The notes beneath the pieces were generated by a model. It saw only the letters and a list, made by a program, of their open reading frames with translations, was not told the DNA's origin and ran no database searches. From Octopus vulgaris (taxonomy: Eukaryota), in the NCBI GenBank assembly GCA_951406725.2, contig OX597821.1, forward strand, positions 73,842,001 to 73,906,000: DNA of 64,000 bases, written 5' to 3'. The position numbers and the translations under genes were made by a program. Positions 2,301 to 47,827 of the stretch are shown in pieces (within the stretch, counting starts at the first letter, position 1; each line of letters begins with the position of its first letter).

Positions 2301-2472
2301 TGAATGAAGGAATGGGATTTGCCCACTATATAGTGCGTGTGTTTTTATTGGCTAAACTGGCAATATGACCATTCCGAAATATAACAATATCTGTTTCAAC
2401 ACACGACTTCACATAAAAAATCTTGCACAACAAATATTTAAACGTATATATATATGTATATATATATAATTA

Positions 2473-2710
2473 ACATTTGATGGATATTTGTCCTCATCTT
2501 GTTTGTTGTTAGCACAACATTTCGGCTGATATATCCTCAAAAGGAATGAAAACCCAGGTTCGAAGTTTCCCCAAGACACCTGATGAAGGCTGGAGAGTAT
2601 ATCAGCCTAAACGTTGTGCTAACAACAAACAAGATGAAGACAAATATCCGTCAAATGCAAATAATGTAAATAATGTACACAATTCTTCATTTCTTAAATA
2701 TAGAACTGTA
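2473..2710 (+). mobile_element. Hammerhead-bearing fold-back element, copy 1
   Basis: Inverted arm 2474-2538 matches ~2594-2657. The right copy has gacac-CTGATGA-aggctg...cagcc-(t)AAACGTT-gtgct and a 3' tail ending ttaaatatagaactgta. Homologous to 33725-34092 and 47038-47374. Confidence 0.85.
2575..2620 (+). ncRNA. Minimal type-I hammerhead ribozyme (GAAA mutated to TAAA, probably inactive)
   Basis: CUGAUGA core, GGCUG/CAGCC stem II, AACGUU palindromic stem III, stem I GACAC/GUGCU. Confidence 0.65.
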
Positions 2711-2728
2711 ATATATATATATACACAC

Positions 2729-2768
<40 letters not shown>

Positions 2769-2771
<3 letters not shown>

Positions 2772-3187
2772 CGCAGGCGTGGCTGTGTGGTAAGTAGCTT
2801 GTTTACCAACCACATGGTTCCGGGTTCAGTCCCACTGCGTGGTATCTTGGGCAAGTATCTTCTACTATAGCCTCGGGCCGACCAAAGCCTTGTGAGTGGA
2901 TTTGGTAGACGGAAACTGAAAGAAGCCTGTCGTATATATGTATATATATATATATATGTGTGTCTATGTTTGTGTGTCTGTGTTTGTCCCCCTAGCATTG
3001 CTTGACAACTGATGCTGGTGTGTTTATGTCCCCGTTACTTAGCGGTTCGGCAAAAGAGACCGATAGAATAAGTACTGGGCTTACAAAAGAATAAGTCCCG
3101 GGGTCGAGTTGCTCGATTAAAGGCGGTGCTCCAGCATGGCCGCAGTCAAAATGACTGAAACAAGTAAAAGAGTAAAGAGTAAAGAGT
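2769..3187 (+). mobile_element. tRNA-derived SINE family A, full length
   Basis: A-box tggctgtgtgg, B-box gggttcagtccc, ccttgggcaag-like core, internal TA/TG tract, tail gctccagcatggccgcagtcaaatgactgaaac(aagagta)n. Several near-identical copies occur in the window. Confidence 0.9.
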
Positions 3188-3269
3188 AATATATATATAT
3201 ATATATACACACATTTATATATATATATATATATATTATACACACACACATATATATATATATACACAC

Positions 3270-32845: not shown

Positions 32846-33306
32846 CCTTTCTATCATAGATACAAGGCCTGAAATTTGAGGGGAAAGGACTAGTCAATTT
32901 CATCGACACCAGTGTTTCACTGGTACTTAATTTATCGACCTTCATAAAGGTTGAAAGACAAAGCGAACTCGGCGGAATTTCATCTCAGAACGTAAAGACG
33001 GGAGAAATACCAAATAATAATGATAGTGCTCAGACTGATAGGGAAACACAGGCTATCTGACCAGATCTCATTGTGTGAAAAATATTGGAAAGACTTGTCT
33101 TCTGGTCGATGTTGCAACGCCAACCGATAAAAATAGATTTCTGAGAACGTTGGAATAAACAGCAAATATTTGTTATAACAACAAAAAAAAAAAAAAAAAA
33201 CACACGACAACCTACAAGTCTACGCCTATAAGTTTACTGGACTTATGAGAAATAGCAACCAAATCACCCTCTATCTTTAAAACAAATGGAAGAAATGACA
33301 GATACT

Positions 33307-33722
33307 GCGAGTGGCTGTGTGGTAAGTAGCTTGCTAACCAACCACATGGTTCCGGGTTCAGTCCCACTGCGTGGTATCTTGGGCAAGTGTCTTCTGCTAT
33401 AGCCCCGGGCCGACCAATGCCTTGTGAGTGGATTTGGTAGACGGAAACTGAAAGAAGCCTGTCGTATATATGTATATATATATATATAAGTGTGTGTGTA
33501 TATGTTTGTGTGTCTGTGTTTGTCCCCCTAGCATTGCTTGACAACCGATGCTGGTGTGTTTATGTCCCCGTTACTTAGCGGTTCGGCAAAAGAGACCGAT
33601 AGAATACGTACTGGGCTTACAAAGAATAAGTCCCGGGGTCGATTTCTTCGACTAAAGGCGGTGCTCCAGCATGGCCGCAGTCAAATGACTGAAACAAGTA
33701 AAAGAGTAAAAGAGTAAAGAGT
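33307..33722 (+). mobile_element. SINE family A, near full length
   Basis: Near-identical to 2769-3187. Confidence 0.9.
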
Positions 33723-33814
33723 ATTATAGTTCTATATTTAAGAGATGAAGAATTATGCACATTATTTACATTATTTACATTTGACAGATATTTGTTCTCA
33801 TCTTGTTTGTTGTT

Positions 33815-33860
33815 AACACAATATTTCGGCTGATATACCCTCCAGCCTTCATCAGGTGTC
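33815..33860 (-). ncRNA. Minimal type-I hammerhead ribozyme
   Basis: GACAC-CUGAUGA-A-GGCUG-GAGGGUAUAU-CAGCC-GAAAUAUU-GUGUU: intact core, palindromic stem III AAUAUU. Confidence 0.75.
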
Positions 33861-33998
33861 TTAGGGAAATTTCGAACCTGGGTTCTCATTCCTAAGGTAT
33901 TTTTCGATATTATTTTTTTTATTATTCAAAATCTTGGCGTTAATAATAAAATCGAAAAATACCTTAGGAATGAGAACCTAGGTTCGAAATCTCCCTAA

Positions 33999-34044
33999 GA
34001 CACCTGATGAAGGTTGGAGGGTATATCAGCTGAAACGTTGTGTT
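33999..34044 (+). ncRNA. Minimal type-I hammerhead ribozyme
   Basis: GACAC-CUGAUGA-A-GGUUG-GAGGGUAUAU-CAGCU-GAAACGUU-GUGUU; stem II changes are G-U compatible. Confidence 0.7.
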
Positions 34045-34889
34045 TACAACAAACAAGATGAGGACAAATAGCCGTCAAATGTAAATAATGTAGATACATT
34101 ATGTTTGAAAAATTATTACAACATGAATGTGTCGTCATAATCAGACAGCAACGAACTGGAACAGATACTATAAAGCATCCCTTTACACGCTCCAGTAAGT
34201 TAACCAATCTATCTCAGCAATTTATCTATTTCAAAAAGAATGAAGTAAAAGTTGATCTCGGCAGGATTTGAACGAAGAGAACGGAGTGTTAGAACGACAC
34301 GTTCTATACGACGCTCTAACCGATTCCGCCAATTCAACGCAAATAAGTTAAATGATATTTTTCCGAGAATCGTATGAAAAGAAGAACAAGGGATACGGTT
34401 TCGACGTTTACCACAATGGATGTAAAGTATATTGAAATGGACAGAAACTGGAATAACGAACGCAACAACAACGACAACAGCAGCAGCAAAGACGTCATCA
34501 ACAATGGCATGTAATAAGAATTGTAACAAAATTAAAAAACAAACAAGAAGAATAAGTTGAAACTGCGGCGACAGGAGATGAGAGTAAATGTAGCAGAAAT
34601 AGAATCGATATTATCAAGTGTAAAATTTACAATAATGACAGAATGCAGAAGGTCAGAGAAATATGACCAACAGCAAAACACATCTGTTGTAGATACAATG
34701 AGAAGAAGACGTAAGAGGAGGAGGAGGAGGAGAGAGAAGCTGGACATGTAAACATCTCCATGGTACACAGAAACAGGAAGGAAACAAAAAAAAAAATAAA
34801 ACACAGTAGCAACAGTACCACGTATGTTGTAGAAATAATAAATTAACATATATTACGTACAACATACAGAAATCATAAATTAACATATT

Positions 34890-37214: not shown

Positions 37215-37510
37215 GGGTTCCAGTTGGTCCAAGCAACGGATCAGCCTGCTCATGAAATTAACGTGCAAGTGGCTGAGCACTCTACAGACAGGTGTACCCT
37301 TAATGTAGTTCTCGGGGAGATTCAGCGTGACACAGAGTGTGACAAGGTTGGCCCTTTGTATTACAGGTACCAATACTTTGTATTGCCAGTTGAGTGGATT
37401 GGAGCAGCGTGAAATAAAGTGTGTTGCTCATTGAGACAACGTATCGCTTGGAATCGAACTCACAGCCTTCCGATCGTGAACCAGACATCCTAATCACTAA
37501 GCCACGCGTT
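37215..37510 (-). mobile_element. SINE with D-type head and C-type tail
   Basis: Reverse complement of the family-C tail (aaattaacgtgcaagtggctgagcactc) plus a D-like head (ctaatcactaagccacgcg). Confidence 0.75.
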
Positions 37511-46739: not shown

Positions 46740-47037
46740 TACACATGTATGTATGTATAAATGATAAGAAAATGGAGGAAAAACAACAAATAGACGTGTG
46801 TTTATGGTGCTAAAAACCCATTATTTAATAATTAAGCAAGGTGAGGGTAAGAGTGAGTTTCTAAAATGTAACACTTTCGAATCATTGAACATTTCCTTTT
46901 CCATTTTCTCCCTCTATCTATCACTCTATTCTCCCCTGGGATTGATTTGTTCGACTAAAGGCAGTGCTCCACAGCATGGCCACAGTCAAATGACAAACAA
47001 GGGAAAGACATTATGAGTTGCAGACATTATGAGTTGT

Positions 47038-47374
47038 ACATTTACATTTGACGGATATTTGTCCTCATGCTGTTTGTTGTTAACACAATGTTTCGGCTGA
47101 TATACCCTCCAGCCTTCATCAGGTGTCTTAGGGAAATTTCGAACCTGGGTTCTCATTCCTAAGGTATTTTTCGATGTTCCTCTTCTTCTTCTTATTATTA
47201 TTCAGGTCACTGCCTGGAATCGAACTCGGAATCTTGGAGTAGCTGGGAGTTAGGCTGGAGGGTATATCAGCCAAAACGTTGTGTTAACAAGAAGCAAGAT
47301 GAGGACAAATATCCGTCAAATATAAACAATGTAAATAATTTAAATAATTCCTCATCCCTTAAATATAGAACTAT
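47038..47374. mobile_element. Hammerhead-bearing fold-back element, copy 3 (retains the tRNA-like B-box)
   Basis: Arms ~47038-47116 and 47252-47335. The minus copy extends 5' to gagttcgattcc (47216-47227); the plus copy carries the 3' tail ending ttaaatatagaacta. Confidence 0.85.
47082..47127 (-). ncRNA. Minimal type-I hammerhead ribozyme (stem III CpG-decayed)
   Basis: GACAC-CUGAUGA-A-GGCUG-GAGGGUAUAU-CAGCC-GAAACAUU-GUGUU. Confidence 0.7.
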
Positions 47375-47827
47375 AAGTTGTCTCCCGCAATTCACTGACA
47401 GTTCAACGAATTTTGAGCGAGTTAATATACATATATGTCTGTCTCTATAGTGTGCGGAGGTAGGGGTAATTGGGTTTGCATTATCAAATTATCATTCATT
47501 TTGATTTGAGGGCAATGTGTAATTTTGAGAGGAATTTAACTACTATTTCTCACAGCCCCACCGTCAACATAGATGTACCTTTGTCATCTTGTAAATATAT
47601 ACCACTCTATCAAGGTAGCGACTTGGCTCAATTGCTGGCTCGTCTTTACGTTCTGAGTTCAAATTCTGCCAGGTTCAACTTCATCCTCTCGGTTTTGATT
47701 AAATAGATACCAGTTAGACACTGGGGTCGATGTAATCGATTTAACCCCTTCATCAGAATTGTGCAACAATTTGAAACAATTATTATTGTATCTACACAGA
47801 CTACATTATTTGAATAGTAAATATTAT

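Follow-up and report, generated by a model that had tools for sequence, protein, structure and literature searches.

An inverted, 5'-truncated pLTR insertion of an autonomous Penelope-like element in Octopus vulgaris, with a tRNA-Arg-derived module that is a likely internal Pol III promoter

The repeat at position 47038 of a 64,000-nucleotide stretch of Octopus vulgaris DNA (called the window throughout) is very probably the pseudo-LTR (pLTR) of an autonomous Penelope-like element (PLE) that carries a fixed tRNA module. The copies in the window are 5'-truncated inverted pLTR insertions and not free-standing SINEs, and we consider it likely that the tRNA-Arg-derived module of this autonomous PLE is an internal RNA polymerase III (Pol III) promoter fixing the 5' start of the RNA that the element copies. 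The original prediction, made from the window alone, was of a non-autonomous SINE with a tRNA head and a PLE tail. This had to be abandoned, as the head sits in an autonomous PLE and the consensus runs 5' into a reverse transcriptase (RT) ORF; its Pol III component was kept in changed form: the module is now taken to be the PLE's own probable promoter and not the head of a separate SINE.

Family coordinates take the ATG of the PLE ORF as position 0, with negative values upstream. The three copies in the window comprise the following features (window coordinates):

47037..47243, minus strand: main arm of the inverted copy at 47038, covering family positions from about -94 to +120 and ending at the short 3' site; 93% identity to the consensus
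47205..47243, minus strand: 3' half of the tRNA-Arg-derived module (5'-truncated, no A box)
47216..47227, minus strand: B box
47177..47204, minus strand: (AAT)n tract, internal to the pLTR, between tRNA module and ATG
47037..47156, minus strand: 5' end of the PLE ORF, present as pLTR tail; ATG at 47156
47082..47127, minus strand: minimal type-I hammerhead (HHR), in frame within the ORF start; stem-III palindrome mutated
47252..47375, plus strand: inverted partner arm of the 47038 copy, +41 to +155, long 3' site (tail); 87% identity to the consensus
33722..33942, minus strand: long arm of the second copy, with AAT tract and, at 33930-33942, the last 13 nt left of the tRNA module in this copy
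33941..34096, plus strand: short arm of the second copy, -29 to +126; HHR core at 34004-34035
2469..2538, minus strand: short arm of the third copy, starting at +47
2542..2711, plus strand: long arm of the third copy, -4 to about +155; no tRNA module, HHR GAAA mutated

Each of the three copies (2473, 33725 and 47038) is an inverted head-to-head pair of 5'-truncated arms, an arrangement absent from the original prediction, which had correctly placed all three in one family and had read the B box, the AAT tract and the minimal type-I HHR that we recovered on the minus strand at 47082-47227. The head remnant reported for the 33725 copy is genuine, with 33930-33942 matching the family head in 12 of 13 letters directly at the arm junction. 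The 47038 copy had been described as having no ORF; it contains the ATG (47156) and the PLE ORF up to about codon 40, and the HHR lies in frame there. From its partner arm (47252..47375) the CUGAUGA half of the HHR is missing. An A box was sought in this copy and is absent, and the stem-III palindrome reads GAAACATT, the family form GAAACGTT being found in 54 of 97 arms; with no A box and a mutated palindrome, the 47038 copy is therefore dead. A B box by itself is common (38 GWTCRANNC matches across the 64-kb window). ARAGORN returned zero tRNAs in the window and noise at a relaxed score, an Rfam scan of the window gave only microRNA models and no hammerhead among the 150 of 348 matches listed, nearly all of them on simple repeats, and the monomer folds of the three window HHRs were not better than those of shuffled sequences (z -1.4, -1.5 and 0.05). 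Other tRNA-type SINE copies are present in the window at 2771-3190, 33306-33722 and 37400-37500; the same tRNA-type SINE adjoins both the 2473 and the 33725 insertions, and another has a near-identical B box.

The parent element was reconstructed as a majority-rule consensus over 80 fragments. The unit of 2,661 bp has a single 835-aa frame and the order ORF, stop, 30 nt, tRNA module, (AAT)n, ATG, HHR and tail. Relative to the ATG, the stop lies at about -154, the centre of a hairpin at -130 to -121, the first base of the tRNA at -124, the A box at -117, the B box at -74, the AAT tract at -51 to -21, the HHR in frame at about +29 to +75 and the 3' ends near +128 and +155. The sequence shared upstream of the module translates into the C-terminus of the PLE ORF, and further walks lead to the RT and an upstream HHR-bearing pLTR. 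The ORF end was reached upstream in 28 of 30 loci chosen by 72 nt around the 5' side of the head, and the A box lies within 80 nt of the ORF end in 56 of 65 distinct ORF ends, with one spacing in 47. ORF and downstream pLTR fall within one alignment at four single loci (L361, L365, L367 and L368), L361 spanning pLTR-ORF-pLTR; among 30 loci selected with the ORF 5' region, 8 have an upstream HHR-bearing pLTR. The autonomous PLE that it had been suggested to look for is this 835-aa ORF element, with the tRNA module about 30 nt past its stop. It had also been considered that the consensus might extend into an RT ORF that has no tRNA head: the RT ORF is indeed reached, and the tRNA module is retained in the pLTR.

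The RT region of a genomic copy matches Pfam RVT_1 (E=6e-7). The C-terminal endonuclease is presumably of the GIY-YIG type, as judged from motifs in the translation; a Pfam search gave no match to this endonuclease, and the structure predicted for the region (pLDDT 43) was too poor for a fold search. A PDB sequence search with a relative retrieved distant RTs only, relatives are 63-75% identical, and metagenome scans yielded no close relatives with a pLTR. The element has the features of EN+ PLEs that were tested, namely an RT ORF, pLTRs from partial tandems, a minimal HHR and inverted tailed copies, and from its architecture it is a putative member of the Penelope/Poseidon clade. A GT...AG stretch with a pyrimidine run is seen at about +113 to +150, between the 3' sites (47361-47330 region, inverted arm); it may represent a short intron of the kind known from other PLEs, although an open frame runs through it, and no intron joint was found for it among the RNA-read matches listed. 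Distant PLE RT fragments (26-32% identity) were encountered at L151:2321-2569, L121:5472-6122, L206:5604-6074 and L092:608-1015.

The head matches genomic tRNA-Arg(ACG) in 50 of 73 letters, the best of nine tRNA types compared (40-49 for the other eight). Its A and B boxes are intact, and its acceptor and T stems are unpaired. As had been predicted, the head is tRNA-derived and a fixed part of the family, complete with its A box in fuller copies, yet the family extends further 5' than the head. The initial set of fuller copies was ranked by score and is biased with respect to head-tail linkage, and an unbiased check was provided by 39 loci picked by the head alone, 29 of which carry the HHR tail within 600 nt. 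The linkage of B box and HHR tail is not due to chance, and the B box is not unique to the 47038 locus, a possibility raised with the original prediction. The other 10 of the 39 loci, without a tail within 600 nt, were considered as a head-only SINE, which was rejected; several of them enter apparent LINE coding fragments past the AAT tract. LINE-like coding fragments directly adjoin AAT tracts at L010, L098, L089, L392, L394, L403 and L412, and several of these tracts belong to this PLE, so AAT-targeting LINEs seem to insert into the pLTR. The A box and B box diverge by 3.5% and 3.7%, only slightly less than the 3.9-7.4% seen elsewhere, a point against the promoter reading. The 14 nt upstream of the module are an imperfect inverted copy of the module's own 5' end that resembles the fold-backs of single insertions, which makes a single capture of the module likely, these 14 nt being its putative fold-back scar. 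A dense array of tRNA-Arg(ACG)-type matches, partly spaced by ~206 bp, was noted at G000:C2:211887730-211907130.

Copy number was estimated from 100 evenly spaced 10-kb stretches (1.0 Mb of the 2.8-Gb genome), which gave 28 clusters; dropping 12 matches to AAT only and merging two parts of one copy left 15 insertions. The density of 15 per Mb (Poisson 95% 8.4-24.7) corresponds to ~42,000 copies genome-wide (range ~24,000-69,000), in line with the high copy number predicted. The copies diverge from the consensus by ~5% outside CpG. It would be conceivable that they belong to a separate non-autonomous SINE with a tRNA head and a PLE tail, propagated from its own masters by PLE enzymes in trans: the majority of copies have no ORF, and where copies extend to the module they begin as a SINE would. 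We regard this as improbable. The head belongs to the autonomous element (the 56 of 65 ORF ends above), and copies with a head are a minority (6 B-box-bearing arms among the 15 random insertions). When 74 tRNA-start arms were compared with 53 ORF-linked arms, in a top-hit sample of PLE loci that is not a census, no position differed after correction (216 positions, lowest p=0.006), and divergence was 4.6% and 5.2%, respectively. Because the tRNA-start copies have no diagnostic bases and diverge equally, no separate SINE lineage was found within this top-hit sample. Two features that define a SINE, a head absent from the autonomous partner and a master lineage of its own with diagnostic bases, both fail here.

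Family copies end at either of two 3' sites, at about +128 (short) and about +155 (long). The 85 tail-selected loci include 46 inverted pairs, of which 42 combine a long and a short end, two have two long and two have two short ends (p=1e-10 for 2 of 44, 50:50 assumed); long ends make up 6 of 15 in the random sample, and all three window copies obey the rule that a long end is paired with a short one. Direct repeats of at least 9 nt flank 37 of 60 inverted insertions versus 265 of 3540 mismatched pairs (7.5%). The predicted involvement of PLE machinery is borne out by the inverted arms, the tail and target duplications of 9-15 nt. One-sided tails and inverted copies are already known from PLEs (PMC8557442, available part), and the anole Poseidon protein, according to the available part of PMC11167929, cuts both strands in vitro and starts reverse transcription at two internal sites that define the tail; the paired 3' ends and target duplications described here fit this two-site result. 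In the octopus PLE, both target strands would be cut by the element's protein, and reverse transcription would begin within the RNA at the two 3' sites. If it began in the RNA's first pLTR, the products would be short SINE-like copies running off where the transcript starts, the short cDNA then folding back or joining the second cDNA; if it began in a downstream pLTR, the less common ORF-bearing copies would result.

The 5' ends of the arms indicate where such a transcript may begin. Among 126 arms reaching -68 (77 tail-selected, 6 random and 43 B-box-selected), 38 of the 47 at risk stop at -128 to -132 and none at -133 to -142, which corresponds to an end rate of 16% per nt at the boundary versus 0.6% per nt within the tRNA body; rates are raised also at -107 to -127 (2-6% per nt). 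Nine arms of this set extend beyond the boundary, two of which look like over-extended fold-backs. In the independent head-selected set (39), 19 of 21 arms at risk stop at the boundary, none in the next 10 nt and two further upstream. The upstream pLTRs of ORF-bearing copies start variously, one of eight at the module (L140) and one beyond it (L128), which speaks against a transcript start at the module. The boundary lies 4-8 nt upstream of the first base of the tRNA and 9-14 nt before the intact A box; calls at -131 can include fold-back letters, which fixes the 5' end only to -126 to -131. Pol III starts on tRNA-type promoters at about this distance before the A box. From these positions we infer that the boundary is best explained by an RNA beginning 9-14 nt ahead of the A box, and initiation by Pol III is on balance its probable cause. 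Transcription would then start at -126 to -131, as set by the A and B boxes of the module.

Alternatively, the tRNA module could be passive cargo of the pLTR in an element transcribed by Pol II, from its own internal promoter or by host read-through, with the pile-up of ends arising from hairpin fold-back or RT release, or from a Pol II start located there by coincidence. A hairpin at -139 to -116, the strongest local one, straddles the 5' end of the module, coincides with the boundary and forms the most stable 30-nt window of the region, and 13 of the 38 ends at -128 to -132 are fold-backs; the D. virilis Penelope promoter, moreover, is TATA-less, internal and LINE-like (PMC2377424, available part), and the RNA-seq signal described below is strand-symmetric. 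However, a stall at the hairpin predicts ends at the 3' base of its stem (-116 to -124), and the arms stop on the far side of the loop, with an observed mode at -128 to -131. Fold-backs number 17 at -127 to -131 and zero after the stronger -139 arm, and there are neither ends nor fold-backs at -133 to -142, where a fold-back would be stabler. The remaining 25 of the 38 ends are not scored as fold-backs, and the position 9-14 nt ahead of an intact A box also speaks against mere cargo, which we consider rather unlikely. Cleavage of a longer transcript by RNase P at the tRNA-like module would create a 5' end as well, and a minor peak of ends does fall exactly on the first base of the tRNA at -124 (10 of 126 arms; 2 of 39 head-selected). 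The main peak, however, is 4-7 nt further upstream, the acceptor and T stems are unpaired and ARAGORN finds no tRNA in the window, which leaves this explanation very improbable.

Initiation by Pol III can be extended to a more tentative possibility, that the autonomous PLE captured a tRNA-type promoter and that Pol III reads the whole 2.66-kb T4-free unit. Through internal starts of reverse transcription, the element might in this way throw off SINE-like copies of its 5' end in the tens of thousands, with no SINE lineage. What counts against a Pol III transcript is that an uncapped RNA would have to be translated. The T4-free sense strand (0 runs in 2,661 nt, codon-shuffle P=0.025) was tried as support for Pol III and rejected, as it failed its controls: G4 is likewise absent, an order-2 Markov model gave P=0.25, and the ORF consensus of another LINE is also T4-free over 1,467 nt. 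RNA-seq reads from a related organism on L128 were strand-symmetric and covered the pLTR much more deeply than the ORF. Neither starts nor ends piled up anywhere, the HHR site included, and such libraries are not expected to show a pile-up; this signal reflects read-through of dispersed copies and is no test of Pol III. A search for sequencing runs listed no RNA run and DNA-like runs from five organisms.

Core and palindrome of the HHR are both intact in 42 of 97 arms, and two HHR copies pair via the palindrome in a co-fold. The HHR would probably cut as a dimer only. The predicted cut site lies downstream of the ATG. In viral UTRs, ribozyme cleavage can drive cap-independent translation (PMC13725137, available part), which may serve by analogy as a lead only for translation of the PLE. 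A head-to-tail HHR array was found in one of 85 tail-selected loci, where at least five units of -20 to +159 follow one tRNA module (L083:1494-2564), a retrozyme-like array from this pLTR. Tandem near-identical type-I hammerhead units of ~359 bp at L153:3050-4600 (G000:C1 near 20.003 Mb) look like a non-LTR retrozyme. At least two further abundant minimal-hammerhead families are probably pLTR stubs of other PLEs; they lie in a T-rich context, often beside TA microsatellites, at loci including L164, L182, L196, L202, L208, L211, L222, L224, L241, L242, L247 and L248.

Octopus tRNA-Arg SINEs and schistosome SM-alpha have a tRNA-Arg-like head with A and B boxes and a broken cloverleaf, and occur as short, abundant copies. 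Unlike in tRNA-derived SINEs, the head of the octopus PLE forms part of the autonomous element, the simple repeat has an internal position, the 3' ends are of the PLE type and there is no independent lineage. In the available parts of PMC11167929 and PMC2377424, Penelope/Poseidon EN+ PLEs share with the present element a single ORF with RT and C-terminal endonuclease (here putative), a pLTR, a minimal HHR overlapping the ORF start and two internal 3' ends ~30 nt apart that define the tail; inverted 5'-truncated copies are likewise described for PLEs (PMC8557442, available part). In contrast to Penelope/Poseidon, the non-coding spacer consists here mostly of the tRNA-derived A/B-box module and (AAT)n, and the 5' ends pile up there; the available text on the D. 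virilis promoter mentions neither tRNA nor polymerase III (PMC2377424). The nearest published idea is that of the TRIMp3 elements Cassandra, Helenus and Ajax, which also have a small-RNA-derived Pol III promoter inside the terminal repeat, proposed to have arisen by insertion of a SINE; unlike the octopus PLE they are non-autonomous LTR elements, and their autonomous partners are argued to need Pol II (PMC10886601, available part). Metazoan non-LTR retrozymes (PMC7229834; bioRxiv 10.64898/2026.07.22.740005; available parts) resemble the family in their type-I HHR, their relation to PLE pLTRs and their short non-coding copies, but form tandem arrays, whereas the copies described here are dispersed singly or inverted (except for the tandem at L083), their HHR is minimal and their parent is linked to an ORF. 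Further literature for comparison is partly available as PMC4209133 and PMC13282606. The overall plan of the PLE is known; no description of a PLE paired with a tRNA-type promoter module, i.e. of a tRNA module in a PLE pLTR, was found in the literature searched, and Repbase, Dfam, SINEBase and the repeat library of PMC13282606, which lie outside that search, may hold the family.

Little is understood of how PLEs are transcribed and how their inverted tailed insertions arise, and this family offers thousands of copies that show where the template's 5' end lies. Its long and short ends inside one target duplication are a genomic test of the two-site result obtained in vitro (PMC11167929, available part). 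Short PLE copies such as these will be wrongly annotated as SINEs. Should the module function as a Pol III promoter, it would break the usual rule that autonomous elements are transcribed by Pol II and only SINEs by Pol III, and it would provide a route to SINE-like repeats without a LINE partner. Were Pol III to read the whole element, the hammerhead would perhaps enable cap-independent translation, and the PLE would represent a living halfway stage from an autonomous element to a SINE.
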